This document shows, one piece after another, positions 43,921-49,931 of a stretch of 64,000 bases of DNA. A program made the translations under genes and the position numbers. Source of the DNA: Paenarthrobacter sp. (GTDB lineage Bacteria > Actinomycetota > Actinomycetes > Actinomycetales > Micrococcaceae); NCBI GenBank assembly GCA_031179305.1, contig JAPSHX010000006.1, positions 36,914-100,913 of the forward strand, read 5' to 3'. The notes under the pieces are model-generated. The model saw nothing but the letters and a program-made list of their open reading frames with translations, was not told where the DNA came from and made no database searches. Numbering within the stretch: the stretch's first letter is position 1; the number at the start of each line of letters is the position of its first letter.

Positions 43921-44125
43921 GAAGAAAGCCTTTCGAAGGAGAGCGAGGAGCATGACAAATTTTGTGATTTTCCTTACATTGACCGTATTCGTTCTCCGGA
44001 AGGGCGTCAATGACTTACCTTTTTTCTGACGCTTGTGTAACTTAATGACAAGGCCCGGGCAGGGCCTTGGGATTGCGACTCTGAATCGGTACCGTGGATC
44101 GGGTTTGGCCCTTCGGAAGGAAACC

Positions 44126-45028
44126 ATGCTGGAAGCGCCGCGAGACGCGCAGTCGTCCCGCACTGTATTGGTGCGAATTCGCTCTGTCCTGCCAGCGTTG
44201 CGCCCATCGGAGCAGGTTGTGGCTGAGTTGGTCCTGTCGGATCCATCGCGGGCTGCCACCATGTCGATCGGCGACCTGGCTGAGGAATGCGGAACATCCA
44301 CTACCTCGGTGGTCCGGTTCTACAAGAAGGTGGGCTACGGCGGCTACTCTGATCTTCGCCTGGACCTTGCACGTGAAACTGCTCGCGAGAGTGTGGCCCA
44401 TGGCGTCCCGGCCGAGGTCTACGAGGACATCAACACCGCCGACTCGCTTCAGGACATCGTCTCCAAAATTGCATTCAACGAGACCATGTCCATCGCCGAT
44501 ACTGCCCAGGTGCTGGACGTCGAACAGCTGGCTCGGGCCATTGACGTGGTGTCCGGCTCCCGCAAGATCGACATCTTCGGAGTGGGAGCGGGAGGTTTGG
44601 TGGGCCAGGACCTGCAGCAAAAGCTGCACAGGATTGGCCTGGTCTCCTTCGTCTGGCCCGAGGTACATGCCGCCCTCACCTCAGCGGTACTGCTCGACGC
44701 CGAATGTGTCGCCATTGCCGTCTCGCACTCGGGAACCACCGAAGACACTGTCGATTACCTCAAGGCGGGCAAAGCAGCCGGCGCCGCCACCATCGCCATC
44801 ACCAACCATGCCGACTCACCACTAGGCGGGGTCGCTGACATAGTGCTGACCACTGCAGCCCGCGAAAGCCCCTTCAGGCCCGGAGCCCTGGGCAGCCGGA
44901 TAGCACAGATGATGGTTGTTGACTGCCTGTTCGTGGGCGTCGCCCAGCAGTCATATGAGGCTTCCATTGATGCGCTGCGTAAAACGCACGCAGCTGTCCA
45001 AAGCCGGAAGTTTCGCCGGGCCAACTGA
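44126..45028 (+). CDS. MurR/RpiR family regulator
   Basis: HTH (STTSVVRF..K.GY.GY.DL) plus SIS domain (SHSG.T); divergent from namZ-nagZ. Confidence 0.9.
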   Translation: MLEAPRDAQSSRTVLVRIRSVLPALRPSEQVVAELVLSDPSRAATMSIGDLAEECGTSTTSVVRFYKKVGYGGYSDLRLDLARETARESVAHGVPAEVYEDINTADSLQDIVSKIAFNETMSIADTAQVLDVEQLARAIDVVSGSRKIDIFGVGAGGLVGQDLQQKLHRIGLVSFVWPEVHAALTSAVLLDAECVAIAVSHSGTTEDTVDYLKAGKAAGAATIAITNHADSPLGGVADIVLTTAARESPFRPGALGSRIAQMMVVDCLFVGVAQQSYEASIDALRKTHAAVQSRKFRRAN

Positions 45029-45061
45029 CAAGCGCACCTGCCTGCCCGGCACAGCCTGAGG

Positions 45062-46321
45062 CTACTGGACAGGTTCCGCCTGCTTGACCTCTCTTTTGAC
45101 GTCACTTTGCCTCAGCATGGAGTCCGAATTGATCGCAAGAATCCCCGAAAGCAGGGCTGCCAGGAGGATGGAGCCAAAGGCCATGAATGACGAGACGCCC
45201 ATAAGAAACGTGGCAACTGCAAGGCTGAGGGGACTGGATACAGTTTCAAGAAACTGGACCGCCGTCATGGTCTTGCCCAGGTCAGACGAGGGAATCTGTT
45301 GATGGATGAGGGACGTGCGTCCCACCGTCCATGCGATGCCGCCCGTACAGACGACGAAAAGGGCACATGCCACGGCAATCCACGACGGTATGAAGAAGAG
45401 CAAGGCCCCTGCTGCCATAAGCCATGAGGACCGTTGCATCAGAACGTTTGGGCGCCATTCGGAGAGCAAACCTGACAGAATCGAACCGCAGAAGAGGCCC
45501 GCAGCTGCCGCTGCACCGACGATTCCTACTTCCGTGGCGGAACCCTTGAGGCCAACGGAGGTCTGGAAGATCGCCAATGTGGACAAAGGGGCGGATAGGA
45601 AGCCGACGAGGACAACTGTCCCGGCAAAACGCCACCAACCATGGATTTGGGTAAGTCGCCGGTACCCGGCAGAAAGTTCCTTGAAGAAACCCGGCCGGTC
45701 CGGCAGGCTGCTCGGGCGCTCCGGCCAAGGCAGGAAATTCATGATCAAGGCAATGACCGTAAACGACACTGCATCAACAGCCAGCAACCACCACGGGCCC
45801 CAGACGGCGCTCAAAGCTCCACCAATTGCCGGACCCACGATGGAAGCTGAGGTCCATGCGGTGGAAACTGCGGCATTGAACTTCGCGGTGCCGTCACCGT
45901 ACATCTTCGGGATGGCCACGAAGGTGGCTGTCCGGGCGAACATGTCTAGGCTGCCGCGTAGGAAGGCGCCTAGTACGAGGACCCAAAAGGGCGTGTGCCA
46001 AGGCCCTATCAGCAGCGCCATTGCAGCAACAACAAGTGCTTGACCCCAATAGCCGATGTGGGTCATGACGCGGGGGGACATACGATCCGCGAGTCCGCCG
46101 ATGAGGACTCCGGGGAAAGCCTTGGGAAGTTGTGATGCCACGGCAACAATGGACATCTGGGCAAGGCTGCCGCTTGTCTGCAGAACTATGAGTGGCAGCG
46201 CGATGTTGTACGCACCCCCACCCAACGAATTCACCCACATTCCCGTGAGGTGCAAACGTCTCTGCCATGGCTTTGCCAATGACACTTCAGTTACCTCGGG
46301 GTGACTGGAGAATGGTGACAA
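45062..46321 (-). CDS. MFS exporter (MccC-like role) of the RiPP cluster
   Basis: About 12 TM segments; GGLADRM, IVGPAIGG, DAVSF; last gene of the mccA-mccB operon, overlapping the previous gene. Confidence 0.8.
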   Translation of the reverse strand: MSPFSSHPEVTEVSLAKPWQRRLHLTGMWVNSLGGGAYNIALPLIVLQTSGSLAQMSIVAVASQLPKAFPGVLIGGLADRMSPRVMTHIGYWGQALVVAAMALLIGPWHTPFWVLVLGAFLRGSLDMFARTATFVAIPKMYGDGTAKFNAAVSTAWTSASIVGPAIGGALSAVWGPWWLLAVDAVSFTVIALIMNFLPWPERPSSLPDRPGFFKELSAGYRRLTQIHGWWRFAGTVVLVGFLSAPLSTLAIFQTSVGLKGSATEVGIVGAAAAAGLFCGSILSGLLSEWRPNVLMQRSSWLMAAGALLFFIPSWIAVACALFVVCTGGIAWTVGRTSLIHQQIPSSDLGKTMTAVQFLETVSSPLSLAVATFLMGVSSFMAFGSILLAALLSGILAINSDSMLRQSDVKREVKQAEPVQ

Positions 46322-47132
46322 GGTCGGGCTGCTTTTCCACTGATGTGAGAAGCCATTGCATTACGGGTGCCTGCCAAAAGCTGATATTCCACGTGCGGGC
46401 AATGACCATGTGAAAGATGGTGGTGCAGCAGGGAACTACCATCCGCCACTTGCCGGGAAGAATGAGGGCAAGGGGGAGTGCGACTAATTCAAGAAAGGGA
46501 ATTGTGCGAGTTAGGGCACGAACCGGCATTCTATATCGCTCTTGGGCAAACGGGTGAGTATCCGAGGCCAACAGGTGCGAATGATAGATATGGTTGGCAT
46601 CGCCGCGCCTGACCCAAGCGTCATAGCCGTGGAGGAGTTTGGACAAGCCGGCCTGCGTGTAGGGCAGGTATAGCGCAACCCGTGAGACCGAAAGCGGCAG
46701 GCTCGGGGACTGGCCACTGCCCGGCTTGGACATCTGACTGATGACGAGTACCGCTTCAATGAACGTGTCATACGGCCAGCGGCCCGGTAGGGATCGGGCA
46801 TCCAAAGCTCGTGTTGCCAAGAAGACTCCCAGCGCTGCCCGCCGAATCCAAGAAGAGGACTTTGACCCGGGGTTTCCACAAACCTCGCCGGCAGCCGCGG
46901 CCGCCATCAGTAGTCCGGCGGCCGCGCGTCGGCTCTTCCAAGCGGCCCCTTCATCAGCCGTGCGGTCCACCGCTGACTCCTGTGAAGCAACTGCAGCTCG
47001 GTAGTCACGGGAAGCAGCCGGGCCGGGGCGGAGCGTCAGCGCAAGGGCGGCAACAGCCCACACTGCCGCATTGCGCACATGCTGGAGTTGGACTGGTTTA
47101 CGGCGAAGTTGTCGGAACATACGTGTACACAA
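46287..47132 (-). CDS. HTTM-like membrane protein (SdpB / vitamin-K-dependent carboxylase-like fold); start uncertain
   Basis: Y..AG.SKL....W...G (YTQAGLSKLLHGYDAWVRRG), FLEL, FH..I....I.F (IFHMVIARTWNISF). Confidence 0.6.
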   Translation of the reverse strand: MCTRMFRQLRRKPVQLQHVRNAAVWAVAALALTLRPGPAASRDYRAAVASQESAVDRTADEGAAWKSRRAAAGLLMAAAAAGEVCGNPGSKSSSWIRRAALGVFLATRALDARSLPGRWPYDTFIEAVLVISQMSKPGSGQSPSLPLSVSRVALYLPYTQAGLSKLLHGYDAWVRRGDANHIYHSHLLASDTHPFAQERYRMPVRALTRTIPFLELVALPLALILPGKWRMVVPCCTTIFHMVIARTWNISFWQAPVMQWLLTSVEKQPDLVTILQSPRGN

Positions 47133-47586
47133 TTTCCTTTTCCTCAGGCATTCCCCGAACAGTAGTTGCCACCAGGATGTCCATCCTCAAGGGATGGTCG
47201 GGCAGGTGAGCGGGGGTGCGAACCTCGTCAAACGGTCTCCAGGCGTTGCTTCGAAGCCTCTGGATGATTCTCTGGCAGAGGACATTCTTTGGTTGCTCGT
47301 CCTCACCCATGAAGATGCCGGCGAACACGGCTCCGGCCCGGAAGAACTGGGTTGGAAGGCAGTTTGCCGGGCCGCAAGCAACGGTTGTTCCACCAGGCAT
47401 GTGAAATTCAACTGCGAATCTTGAGACGCGGTCCCGGAACTTCGCATTGAACATATTGTTTGACGCAATTGGCCAGAAGTTTCTGTTGGCCACCGTTGCG
47501 GCGATCGAGGCGACTACGTAGGCCCCCGCCAACGCAACGAGCGCCGTGGACTTGTTGCAGTCAGGCGCACGCAGCACAGCGGCCAT
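47098..47586 (-). CDS. membrane-anchored protein of unknown function (partner of the HTTM-like protein)
   Basis: One N-terminal TM helix then FWPIASNNMF; overlaps both neighbours; start uncertain. Confidence 0.6.
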   Translation of the reverse strand: MAAVLRAPDCNKSTALVALAGAYVVASIAATVANRNFWPIASNNMFNAKFRDRVSRFAVEFHMPGGTTVACGPANCLPTQFFRAGAVFAGIFMGEDEQPKNVLCQRIIQRLRSNAWRPFDEVRTPAHLPDHPLRMDILVATTVRGMPEEKEIVYTYVPTTSP

Positions 47587-48598
47587 TCCTGGCGAAATCT
47601 TCGAACTCCGATGCCAACTCCAGCGAGTCAAACACCAGCCTCCTGCCGTCAAGGTTGGTGGATCCGGTAAGCAGGTAGCGGAACACTTCCATTGCGGCAA
47701 TGGACGCCACGATTGAGTTCAGCGGCCCAAAGCTTGGGGCCTGGTATGAGCTATTGAGATTGGTGGTGGAGAGCGATGCCTTTGATTTGGTCCTGCCGTC
47801 GTTGTCTGTCGCTGCGCATTCCAGGCAAGGGGTGACGCCTGGCCGTACTACCGGGCCTACCACTCCACGCGTATCTTGATACCCGGCGCAAGTGAAGGGT
47901 GTGCCGGTGGCGATGGACGCCTGGTTAGACCACTCGAGCACTTCCTGGGGCGTATCGGCCGAGACCACAACGAAGTCTGAGTCCTGAAAAACAGGCAAGA
48001 GATCGTTCGCTCCGGACATCATGGAGGCGACTTCCACCGTGTTGATGCCGGGGGCCCTGAGGTGAAGGTTTCTTGCAGCGGCTTGAATTTTGGGGGAACC
48101 GATATCTTGCGCAGTGAAGAGGTACTGCCGGGTCAGGTTGCTTTCTTCCACAGTGTCCCCGTCGACCAGGACAATGGTGCCCACACCGGCTGTTGCGAGT
48201 TGCATGGCTACGTTCGTTCCGATCCCTCCCACACCGATTAGCGTGACCTTTCGATTACGCAGCAGATCGCTGGCACCGGGGCCGGTGCTGTGTGCAAGTT
48301 CAAAGTACAGGTCATGGCGGCTGTACCGGCCGGAGAGGTCGAACCTGTACGGCACCAGAATCTCGGCGTCGATAAGTTCCTCGACGATCTCCCCGGAGCC
48401 TTCACCCAGCAGGAGTTCGGCCTTGCCGCCCAAAGCGTCGAGTGTCCGTGGCTGTGAAGCGAAGCTAAGTAGTTCTGCGAGCCCGTCCGGGGCATCCTCG
48501 ATTTCGATTGCGTTGGGCGGGGCCAATCCGATCTGCACGGCCGTTTCCGTGGTGATGACGGGTAGCGACTGCTTGAGGGAGTAGGTTATGACTGCCAA
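47561..48598 (-). CDS. mccB: MccB-like ThiF-family peptide nucleotidyltransferase
   Basis: N-terminal extension of about 90 aa (RRE-like), then RYSR, GVGGIG, D.D.VE.SNLTRQ, VVSAD.P, AGY, GP...PG.TPCLEC, PSFGPLN, terminal CAAC. GGAGG-N6-TTG start at 48598. Confidence 0.88.
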   Translation of the reverse strand: MAVITYSLKQSLPVITTETAVQIGLAPPNAIEIEDAPDGLAELLSFASQPRTLDALGGKAELLLGEGSGEIVEELIDAEILVPYRFDLSGRYSRHDLYFELAHSTGPGASDLLRNRKVTLIGVGGIGTNVAMQLATAGVGTIVLVDGDTVEESNLTRQYLFTAQDIGSPKIQAAARNLHLRAPGINTVEVASMMSGANDLLPVFQDSDFVVVSADTPQEVLEWSNQASIATGTPFTCAGYQDTRGVVGPVVRPGVTPCLECAATDNDGRTKSKASLSTTNLNSSYQAPSFGPLNSIVASIAAMEVFRYLLTGSTNLDGRRLVFDSLELASEFEDFARNGRCAACA

Positions 48599-48616
48599 TT
48601 CTTGCCTCCAATGATG

Positions 48617-48647
48617 AGTGGGGGCCACGCGTTGCGCGGCCCCCACT
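48617..48647. terminator. hairpin between precursor gene and mccB
   Basis: AGTGGGGGCC-N11-GGCCCCCACT; T-tract follows only on the + strand. Confidence 0.65.
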
Positions 48648-48660
48648 TTTTATTCTTGGT

Positions 48661-48720
48661 TTAGTTGAACACGAAGTTCAGCTTGGAACGGCGCTTGGCC
48701 AGTCGCTTGAGCTTAAGCAC
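48661..48720 (-). CDS. mccA: microcin C-like precursor peptide MLKLKRLAKRRSKLNFVFN (19 aa)
   Basis: AAGGAG SD 8 nt upstream of GTG; C-terminal Asn then TAA; directly upstream of the MccB-like gene; too short for the ORF track. Confidence 0.88.
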   Translation of the reverse strand: MLKLKRLAKRRSKLNFVFN

Positions 48721-48762
48721 TTGAATCACTCCTTTGTGTTTATAAACTTGTTGGACGGAATG

Positions 48763-48800
48763 AATCTACGACAGTTGTCATAGATATGACAAGCCTGTCG
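48763..48800 (-). promoter_or_regulatory. putative mccA promoter with overlapping palindromic operator
   Basis: Minus-strand TTGTCA-N18-TAGATT; inverted repeat CGACAG-TTGTCAT-agat-ATGACAA-gc-CTGTCG. Confidence 0.55.
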
Positions 48801-48865
48801 ATTACTTTTTTGCGTGCCGCTTCGGTTGATCTCCGTCAGGGCGTGTGGGGTATAGAGTCGAGGTC

Positions 48866-49420
48866 ATGTTTGAACTTGTCCCGCCGAATGTTGCCTTCCA
48901 CCAGTCATTCCTTGAGTCTCACCGCGAGTGGGGCGGCGTCCATCAGGATGGCGCCGCCGTCTTCCTGGCGGACGATGTCACCAGCGCGGAGGGGTTCGCA
49001 GCTTGGGTTGGTAAGTTGTTGGACGCTGAAAGCACACCTGAGGAGAACGGCATTGTTCCATGCACTTATCTCTGGATCACGGAGGGTCCACGCTACGTAG
49101 GGGCGATTGCGTTCCGGCACCATCTGACGCCGGCTCTCCTGAACTCGGGTGGGCATATCGGCTATGGGATTCGCCCCTCGGATCGCAGGAGGGGGGTGGC
49201 GTCCTGGGCCTTGCAGGAACTGCTGGCTCGTTTGGCTGCGAAGGGGGAGTTGGGTGGGGTTCGGTCGGATCGAGTTCTGCTGACCTGTGATGACGACAAT
49301 TCGGCGTCGATTAGAACCATCGAGCGCTGCGGGGGGCGGCTCGAAGATGCGCGGACGGGTGAAGACGGTCGGCTTTTCCGCCGGTACTGGATCGACCTGG
49401 AAACACCTGCAGCACCATAG
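48866..49420 (+). CDS. GNAT family acetyltransferase (COG3981-like)
   Basis: GGHIGYGIRPSDRRRGVA, LTCDDDNSASIRTIERCGG, RRYWI. Confidence 0.88.
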   Translation: MFELVPPNVAFHQSFLESHREWGGVHQDGAAVFLADDVTSAEGFAAWVGKLLDAESTPEENGIVPCTYLWITEGPRYVGAIAFRHHLTPALLNSGGHIGYGIRPSDRRRGVASWALQELLARLAAKGELGGVRSDRVLLTCDDDNSASIRTIERCGGRLEDARTGEDGRLFRRYWIDLETPAAP

Positions 49421-49457: not shown

Positions 49458-49931
49458 ATGCACCATGGCTTCATGAGCAGTCAACCCAGGGGTGACATTC
49501 CTGCATCCAGCCTTGCGGATTCACAGTGGCAGCAGGTCCTCACCCATCGTCCCTTGGATGACGGCTCACGGGAAGCCGCAGCCACAAGGTTCGCTGAACG
49601 AGGCATCACCCCGGAACAGCTCAAGGCTGTCCTCGACGATGGTGGGGACGCCCTCTATGCGGCGGCCGCCGGGGGCAAGCCCGGCTGGACAGATCCATTC
49701 GGTGGTCCCCTTGCCGTTGCTCTCCTCTCAGCCGAAGTGAGCATCTTCGCGGCGCATTTGAACTCGAGGGCGTCCGGAGTCAGATCGGCAGCGGTTGCCG
49801 AACTGCTGGACGAATACAGCGCGGTAACCGTAGCCGCTGAGCTCGGCGTGGCGCGCCAGAAGGTATACGAAATCGCAAGAGCGGGTTTGCGCCCGCCCTA
49901 TATCGAGCAGGTCCCTTGGAGGACGTCGTGA
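49458..49931 (+). CDS. hypothetical protein with C-terminal HTH
   Basis: VAAELGVARQKVYEIAR HTH-like segment. Confidence 0.65.
   Translation: MHHGFMSSQPRGDIPASSLADSQWQQVLTHRPLDDGSREAAATRFAERGITPEQLKAVLDDGGDALYAAAAGGKPGWTDPFGGPLAVALLSAEVSIFAAHLNSRASGVRSAAVAELLDEYSAVTVAAELGVARQKVYEIARAGLRPPYIEQVPWRTS

Follow-up and report, generated by a model that had tools for sequence, protein, structure and literature searches.

Minimal microcin C-type (mcc) clusters consist of mccABC, and a C-terminal Asn is the only strict requirement placed on their MccA substrates (PMC8323819). Zukher et al. (2019; mBio, PMC6495379) place long precursors, of 17-56 amino acids (aa), in an MccB clade of their own. Natural Trojan-horse inhibitors of aminoacyl-tRNA synthetases are few, and microcin C-type compounds belong to them; their decorations decide both their potency and which immunity enzymes they escape. 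Here we analyse a 64,000-nucleotide stretch of a Paenarthrobacter sp. genome (GenBank assembly GCA_031179305.1, contig JAPSHX010000006.1, positions 36,914 to 100,913 of the forward strand), referred to in its entirety as the window, which carries an mcc locus on its minus strand. Between mccB and mccC this locus holds two membrane-protein genes, termed ORF2 and ORF3, of which the mcc papers examined make no mention. With moderate confidence, we propose that the cassette encodes a microcin C-type pathway in which ORF2 and ORF3 act as a split, very divergent relative of vitamin K carboxylase that tailors the product.

The closest published loci belong to the same genus-level group. In Table S1 and Figure 2 of Zukher et al. 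2019, five MccB accessions from Arthrobacter appear (FB24, M2012083, HG, Y81, and one multispecies entry); the precursor predicted for them, (M/V)LKLKRL(A/T)KRRSKLNFVFN, is that of the window (PMC6495379). Arthrobacter is not mentioned in the main text of that study (PMC6495379), and a full-text literature search for the peptide string returned no paper, the string occurring only in the Zukher 2019 supplement. A first-pass annotation of the window had known of no described cluster with this gene set; for the mccA/mccB core this does not hold, the precursor and its MccB both being listed in Table S1. As the core was predicted in print in 2019, the cassette is not new as an mcc locus, and the locus in itself adds little. 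Unlike the present analysis, the published table is confined to MccB accessions and predicted peptides, and no discussion of the accessory genes was found in that study. The mcc papers examined, which did not include the cluster-architecture supplement of the 2021 review, contained no mention of accessory ORF2/ORF3 genes, and a published connection between HTTM proteins and microcin C was likewise not found. To our knowledge, a two-subunit, HTTM-type insert with conserved catalytic residues is undescribed in an mcc context.

For the pair itself, the nearest parallels lie among bacterial relatives of vitamin K carboxylase. MloH, a fused bacterial orthologue of that enzyme, carboxylates an aspartyl residue in malonomycin biosynthesis (10.64898/2026.08.19.745780; PMC12186529; PMC12647623). 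Split complexes of DUF5819 and HTTM proteins have been predicted in a 2026 preprint, with the small protein predicted with high confidence to bind the HTTM protein and to cap its quinone pocket (10.64898/2026.08.19.745780). ORF2 and ORF3 resemble these modules (10.64898/2026.08.19.745780) in that a small protein with an N-terminal transmembrane helix and a domain of ~130-150 aa is encoded beside an HTTM-type gene.

The mccA-mccB core and the exporter

The mccB-like gene (47561..48598, minus strand) opens with TTG and encodes a 345-aa peptide-nucleotide synthase of the ThiF/E1 fold, which we identify from its sequence as MccB. Residues 108-332 match Pfam ThiF (E 5.3e-44). Among solved structures the top three matches were E. 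coli MccB entries (143 bits, residues 89-344), with lower scores for ThiF (73 bits) and MoeB (62 bits). Identity to the MccB of an E. coli mcc plasmid locus carrying mccB, mccC, mccD, mccE, and mccF (L018) was 28.5% in a global alignment (97/340 aligned positions). Within it, D215, Y240, and C258/C261/C341/C344 of the window enzyme correspond to D214, Y239, and the Cys4 zinc site of E. coli MccB, and the ATP loop GVGGIG is aligned with GCGGIG; D214 and Y239 are catalytically important in the E. coli enzyme (PMC8323819). Before its ThiF domain the window enzyme has an N-terminal extension of 88 residues, of a length that would suit the ~90-residue peptide-clamp (RRE-like) domain of MccB; it aligns co-linearly with the E. 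coli protein and shows no sequence conservation.

A maximum-likelihood tree of 45 sequences, PaaA itself not among them, separated a MccB clade including E. coli MccB from MoeB/ThiF-like proteins with a support of 100/100. Within the former, the window enzyme belongs to a 13-member clade (96/94) together with enzymes of clusters bearing MccD- and MccE1-like genes (L014, and P0017 at locus L007). This clade is separate from that of the methyltransferase-fused MccBs, where P0020 (locus L006) adjoins genes for MccS-like, carbamoyltransferase, and Asx-tRNA synthetase proteins. Other relatives of the window enzyme are fused to methyltransferase, GNAT, or S66 peptidase domains, and the 2021 review counts such neighbours among the accessory genes of mcc clusters (PMC8323819). 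The assignment to MccB rather than to MoeB/ThiF, which the first-pass annotation had left to be checked, is thus borne out by both the structure scores and the tree. The window enzyme shares 84% identity with a close relative, P0005 of Arthrobacter sp. Y81.

The mccA-like gene (48661..48720, minus strand) starts with GTG, 7 nt downstream of an AAAGGAG Shine-Dalgarno sequence, and encodes a strongly cationic peptide of 19 aa, VLKLKRLAKRRSKLNFVFN, which ends in Asn directly before the stop codon. Loci of the same genus encode either the identical peptide or MLKIKRLAKRRSKLNFVFN; the precursor of a Tetrasphaera metagenome-assembled genome (L003), whose MccB is 50% identical to that of the window, reads MLKLKKLISSRSKVNVMFN, and that of a metagenome contig MFKLKKLFKSRSKINFVFN. 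The homologous loci L001, L011, L012, L003, and L014 thus all retain an Asn-terminated 19-mer behind a Shine-Dalgarno sequence; its absence from them would have refuted the first-pass reading. The small ORF is no chance frame: loci with a MccB only ~50% identical preserve the length, the ML/FKLK start, and the FN end. Between the window and L001, the mccA frames differ in the start codon, in two synonymous codons, and in the stop codon. The window precursor is also like that of B. amyloliquefaciens, MLKIRKVKIVRAQNGHYTN, in its length of 19 aa and its MLK start (the window start codon being GTG). A further candidate precursor, MLNIKRITARVLRGRLKN, of 18 aa, Asn-ended, and behind a strong Shine-Dalgarno sequence, was noted at 397-453 of L007, in a cluster with a MccB-GNAT fusion and MccD-/MccE1-like genes. 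Precursors starting with ML(K/N)(L/I)K are thus found in more than one long-precursor mcc type, and the B. amyloliquefaciens peptide of Zukher 2019 is among them.

Between mccA and mccB lies a hairpin with a 14-bp stem (48617..48647, minus strand; -31.6 kcal/mol, z = -5.1 against shuffles). Hairpins of unrelated sequence occupy the same position in L001, L011, L003, and L014, and one stem pair differs between the window and L001 on both sides (G-C to A-U). By analogy with the E. coli mcc operon, we regard it as a candidate attenuator or terminator. A sigma-70-like promoter candidate upstream of mccA (TTGTCA-18-TAGATT, 48763..48792, minus strand) is a consensus match only, and promoter-like sites in the region are no more numerous than in shuffles.

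The last gene of the operon (45062..46321, minus strand) encodes a mccC-like exporter of the major facilitator superfamily (MFS) with 419 aa (MFS_1, E 1e-20; TIGR00900, E 8e-32), and holds the same position in L001, L003, and L014. All six elements that the first-pass annotation had described as a minus-strand operon were found in place (48800-45062). The locus is therefore like those of E. coli and of other long-precursor systems in its short, Asn-ended precursor with a strong Shine-Dalgarno sequence, its mccA-mccB hairpin, and its downstream MFS exporter. Unlike known, more elaborate mcc clusters, it has no MccD, MccE, MccF, MccH, MccS, or methyltransferase domain; Pfam and NCBIfam scans of the cassette confirmed the earlier remark that MccD, MccE1, MccS, MccF, and MccH are missing. 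Reading the missing immunity genes as an unusual architecture is not warranted, as most mcc clusters are just mccABC (PMC8323819).

The ORF2/ORF3 pair

ORF3 (46287..47120, minus strand) encodes a polytopic membrane protein of 277 aa when read from its ATG, the open frame reaching a TTG at 47132. The first-pass label of this protein as HTTM-like is backed by a profile-profile comparison: an alignment of ORF3 homologues, compared by hhalign with aligned HTTM domains of 14 Pfam-positive proteins from Actinomycetota, matched with a probability of 93.9% (E 1.6e-7, 106 columns, ORF3 residues 139-251). One of the 14 proteins (L032) is similar enough to human GGCX (E 1e-51) to serve as a bridge for residue mapping. 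Through it, K161, E211, and F236/H237 of ORF3 fall on K218, D263, and F286/H287 of GGCX, and W169 lies near W223, eight residues after the Lys rather than five owing to a three-residue insertion. None of K161, W169, E211, and F236/H237 varies in ORF3 homologues, even at 21% identity; the roles of the corresponding GGCX residues are described in PMC12647623. Like GGCX, ORF3 hence keeps counterparts of K218, W223, D263, and F286/H287 in the segment that aligns to the C-terminal half of HTTM domains. To judge from these alignments, ORF3 belongs to the HTTM (vitamin K carboxylase-type) superfamily as a divergent member, with its active-site residues in place.

Other approaches to ORF3 were less informative. 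A comparison with one true HTTM protein gave a probability of 11.8%, informative results being obtained only against the HTTM-domain alignment. The ORF3 profile found chance matches only among PDB sequences (E above 1), and word-indexed searches, with ORF3 alone and then with the alignment, returned few distant relatives. Its AlphaFold2 (AF2) model from the single sequence was unusable (predicted local distance difference test, pLDDT, 41.6), and protein-atlas feature matches of 0.84-0.86 serve as leads only. A search of the window's genome with PF05090, the Pfam HTTM model, yielded nothing at E 1e-10.

ORF2 (47098..47586, minus strand) encodes a protein of 162 aa with a single transmembrane anchor, from an unnamed family, for which 86 representatives were collected at E below 1e-3. 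Neither Pfam nor NCBIfam matched ORF2, nor did Pfam match 46 of its relatives, and a search of 400 other Actinomycetota genomes for the family (E 1e-5, five candidates scored per genome) was negative. An AF2 model built on an alignment of 47 relatives was confident (pLDDT 91.6), and places a transmembrane helix at residues 10-33 before a compact alpha/beta domain. In a shape search of a protein atlas, this model showed weak similarity to a DUF5819 cluster (template-modelling score 0.43 over 101 residues), and scored 0.54 to another cluster, of whose members 19% have HTTM.

The last four genes of the operon are tightly packed. With the chosen starts, mccB and ORF2 overlap by 26 nt, ORF2 and ORF3 by 23 nt, and ORF3 and the MFS gene by 35 nt; alternative in-frame starts would shorten the overlaps, with the genes still abutting. 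ORF2 and ORF3 are a conserved pair. Genes at the same positions in Tetrasphaera are 39% (ORF2) and 38% (ORF3) identical to those of the window, and the pair also lies between mccB and mccC in L014, which has GNAT, MccD-like, and MccE1-like genes besides. In P0175, from an Angustibacter metagenome-assembled genome, and in P0222, an ORF3-like N-terminal part is fused to an ORF2-like C-terminal part; this order matches that of membrane core and cap in GGCX. On its short contig (L017, 130-1726), the P0175 gene slightly overlaps a following gene for an S66 (MccF-type) peptidase.

A model of the ORF3-ORF2 complex scored an ipSAE of 0.80, against 0.00 for the best of three controls. In a calibration that holds only roughly, since custom alignments were used here, this mark was reached by 58/80 solved complexes and by 2/110 mismatched pairs. 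Three runs agreed in at least 84% of contacts, with a partner pLDDT of at least 81, and the predicted interface sets the invariant residues 152-169 of ORF3 against the transmembrane helix of ORF2 and its conserved NRNFWP..NMFN motif. The modelling thus supports ORF2 as a predicted partner subunit of ORF3.

A pair of this kind was also observed outside mcc loci. At 5001-6529 of L016 (GCA_019492185.1), the gene of an ORF2 family member (163 aa) immediately precedes one for a Pfam-positive HTTM protein (341 aa), between a nonribosomal peptide synthetase (NRPS) gene on one side and polyketide synthase (PKS) dehydratase, aminotransferase, and PALP-enzyme genes on the other. The arrangement represents a second kind of biosynthetic cluster using such a pair, and is reminiscent of the malonomycin case.

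Proposed pathway and competing readings

In the pathway that we propose, mccA would yield a cationic, Asn-ended peptide of 19 aa, with the hairpin probably ensuring, as in E. coli, a surplus of the short precursor transcript. MccB would activate the C-terminal Asn and join a nucleotide to it via a phosphoramidate bond. The nucleotide may be adenosine or cytidine monophosphate (AMP or CMP); we lean slightly to AMP because the window clade is tied to MccD/MccE1-type clusters and is without the methyltransferase domain of cytidylating enzymes. ORF2 and ORF3 would form one heteromeric membrane enzyme, ORF3 providing an HTTM-type core with a quinol-deprotonating Lys and ORF2 a membrane-anchored cap. 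Such a complex would use menaquinol and O2 chemistry to tailor either the peptide or its Asx-nucleotide end, carboxylation being one candidate by analogy with MloH. The MFS pump would export the product, and is likely to be the main means of self-protection. The precursor, the nucleotide linkage by MccB, and MFS export follow from family membership and would be likely. What the analysis establishes is gene content, family placement, conservation (also of single residues), a predicted complex, and gene fusions; from these we infer every chemical step, the nucleotide, the cofactor, and the membrane face of the pair. The different tailoring chemistry that the first-pass annotation had envisaged is a reasonable if tentative reading of the ORF2/ORF3 pair, the only part of the cassette that speaks for it.

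A number of results weigh against this proposal. ORF3 remains below the gathering score of Pfam HTTM (PF05090), its scan giving LMF1 at E 0.0094 and no HTTM match, and its Tetrasphaera orthologue reaches HTTM only at E 0.12 (12.3 bits against a cut-off of 27.7). Unlike GGCX, ORF3 has only 277 aa and belongs to an enzyme split into two genes; only its C-terminal 106 columns align to HTTM, its N-terminal half being unplaced. ORF2, for its part, has no significant sequence or fold match to the luminal domain of GGCX. Foldseek found no PDB match to the ORF2 model at E 0.001, and a VIA-align search of 48,161 chains reached a best Z of 3.7, with GGCX (9bum_A 405-492) at rank 9 and Z 3.2, within noise. 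Against full-length, GGCX-like bacterial proteins the ORF2 family aligned in co-linear fashion, sharing the transmembrane helix and a W.M motif, at a level that was not significant (E 0.062, probability 0.9%). Assignment of ORF2 to DUF5819 (PF19136) was considered and, at the level of sequence, rejected: Pfam gave no match and hhalign against four DUF5819 proteins a probability of 0.3%. Unlike the small protein of the DUF5819 modules, ORF2 represents a rare and unnamed family. The complex score is a model confidence rather than a measurement, and the argument for a catalytic role of the pair consists of conserved residues. The precursor contains no Glu, and the classical substrate of vitamin K carboxylase is therefore missing. 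Finally, the Arthrobacter rows of the published table are predictions with no validation DOI (PMC6495379), and the long-precursor MccBs that have been validated make cytidylates with a methyltransferase domain that the window enzyme does not have (PMC8323819).

The main alternative is a reading in which the peptidyl-nucleotide is undecorated and ORF2/ORF3 serve as a non-catalytic membrane accessory for the secretion or extracellular maturation of an unusually long, cationic, and amphipathic peptide-nucleotide, or for protection of the producer. There is an analogy in SdpA/SdpB, without which Bacillus does not produce its SDP peptide. The pair directly precedes and overlaps the exporter gene, it is specific to the clade with MLKLK-type 19-mers, the peptide contains no Glu, and ORF2 has no enzyme-like fold match. 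In L014, moreover, the pair is not needed to explain decoration, since MccD and MccE1 homologues are present there. A passive accessory would, however, not be expected to keep the GGCX-type catalytic Lys, Asp/Glu, and Phe-His invariant in ORF3 homologues down to 21-33% identity. The occurrence of an ORF2-family gene beside a true HTTM gene in an NRPS/PKS cluster, where tailoring is the usual reading, also speaks against it. The SdpA/SdpB models themselves (TIGR04034, TIGR04033) matched neither ORF2 nor ORF3 even at E 10, and TIGR04034 (SdpA) found nothing in the window's genome while recovering its Bacillus subtilis control. We consider an accessory role possible, if on balance rather unlikely.

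Returning to tailoring by the pair, its chemistry may be guessed at more closely. An appealing guess is carboxylation, or a related oxidation, directed at Asx, given that the microcin carries an Asx-nucleotide as its warhead. That ORF2/ORF3 constitute a split, menaquinone-dependent carboxylase or oxygenase modifying the C-terminal Asx-nucleotide or another residue is nevertheless a long shot in our estimation. If true, the microcin would carry a warhead or decoration of a new kind; ribosomal-peptide pathways would gain their first enzyme of the vitamin K carboxylase type, and the enzyme class a minimal model with two subunits. More generally, a conserved and catalytically intact-looking HTTM-type pair in one mcc clade points to a decoration or handling step of which we found no description. 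Through the pair, bacterial HTTM proteins, whose functions are mostly obscure, would also become accessible in a small, genetically tractable system whose peptide substrate is defined.

It is very improbable that the ThiF-like enzyme performs other chemistry on a ribosomal peptide, such as PaaA-like cyclisation or the formation of a thiolactone or indolylamide reported for other family members, with a product that is no aspartyl-tRNA synthetase inhibitor. ThiF-like enzymes of such pathways catalyse several reactions (PMC12150305, PMC12250964), and close homologues bear the NCBI name 'TOMM precursor leader peptide-binding protein', TIGR03882 scoring above cut-off for the window enzyme. PaaA, however, reached only 56 bits over 89 residues, compared with 143 bits over 256 residues for MccB, and the C-terminal Asn is invariant in all of the diverged precursors. 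The closest outgroup clusters carry genes for MccD, MccE, MccS, MccF, and Asx-tRNA synthetase, which are sensible only for aspartamide-nucleotides. Neither a YcaO cyclodehydratase nor a dehydrogenase partner was found near the cassette in Pfam and NCBIfam scans, and the peptide offers no Cys, Thr, or Trp and a single Ser in mid-peptide, at position 12.

Least probable of all is a decaying or silent remnant whose small ORF and two unnamed ORFs are not expressed as proteins, for although the cassette is patchy, experimental validation is absent from the published record, and the TTG and GTG starts are weak, the five frames of the window and of L001 are all intact (as are the reachable frames of the shorter loci L011, L012, L021, and L022), the proteins are conserved to ~38-50% identity in other genera with gene order kept, the mccA substitutions are synonymous, and RNA-library contigs of a relative cover the cassette.

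Cassette limits, flanking genes, and distribution

The mcc genes form a 3.8-kb accessory cassette (~45029-48844), present or absent between two conserved genes. Downstream of the operon lies a gene for an RpiR/MurR-type regulator with Pfam HTH_6 and SIS domains (44033..45028, plus strand), and upstream one for a GNAT protein (Acetyltransf_3; 48845..49420, plus strand), both outside the cassette. These limits, and the placement of the GNAT gene in the flanking chromosome, follow from genome G447, where GNAT and RpiR adjoin without the mcc genes; its locus L023 has the order 157-aa gene-GNAT-RpiR, with a gap of 59 bp between the latter two. Alignment of this empty site with both cassette edges gave no clear repeats or junction that might mark an insertion, and GC content (0.56-0.62 in the cassette, 0.60-0.64 in the flanks) provides no usable island signal.

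The GNAT gene was considered as an MccE2-type immunity gene of the cassette and rejected, given that it occupies the same chromosomal site in genomes without the cassette there, such as G447. Orthologues with 70-88% identity occur in at least ten genomes of the same genus; the gene is present in G048, which gave no MccB match, and absent from the Tetrasphaera locus. Its product matches Acetyltransf_3 (E 1.8e-8) and, weakly, a RimL model, with no PDB match at E 0.01. The similarity to the C-terminal domain of E. coli MccE (28% identity over 68 residues) is generic, and the protein shares no more than generic Acetyltransf_3 similarity with the GNAT encoded in the L014 operon and with the corresponding domain in P0017. 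We have thus dropped it as a cluster component on the basis of synteny; that it could still acetylate a processed product and so help the producer is speculation. Just after it, at 49458-49931 (plus strand), the window encodes a 157-aa protein with no Pfam or NCBIfam match, and this gene stands beside GNAT in relatives with the cassette (G413) and without it (G447).

MccB homologues (E 1e-40 or better) were found in 3/400 other Micrococcaceae species genomes, two of them in the same genus, and two further same-genus genomes carry the cassette (G413, G416). The third of the MccB-bearing genomes, from another genus (G072; L013, 715-4014), has a MccB-methyltransferase fusion in a 704-aa frame, 40% identical to the window MccB, which adjoins an S51 peptidase gene and an MFS gene and represents a different mcc type. 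Contrary to the initial view of a subtype in Micrococcaceae, the same module also occurs in the Tetrasphaera and Angustibacter metagenome-assembled genomes and on unassigned metagenome contigs. Plasmid records held no close relative, all matches being below 60% identity.

Eight metagenome runs of rhizosphere or soil, which belong to two studies, contain the window DNA at full identity, and any of them may be its source. RNA-seq contigs from three libraries of a ~92%-identical isolate cover the entire cassette, one of them spanning 44900-48912. These are consistent with transcription of the cassette, and are no proof of it; being contigs of a relative's libraries, they do not allow expression level, strand, or transcript ends to be derived. 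A last observation concerns the Tetrasphaera locus, where the MFS pump is followed by a gene that the window does not have (L003, 9689-10942), encoding 417 aa with weak cytochrome P450-like matches (best E 9.7e-8).

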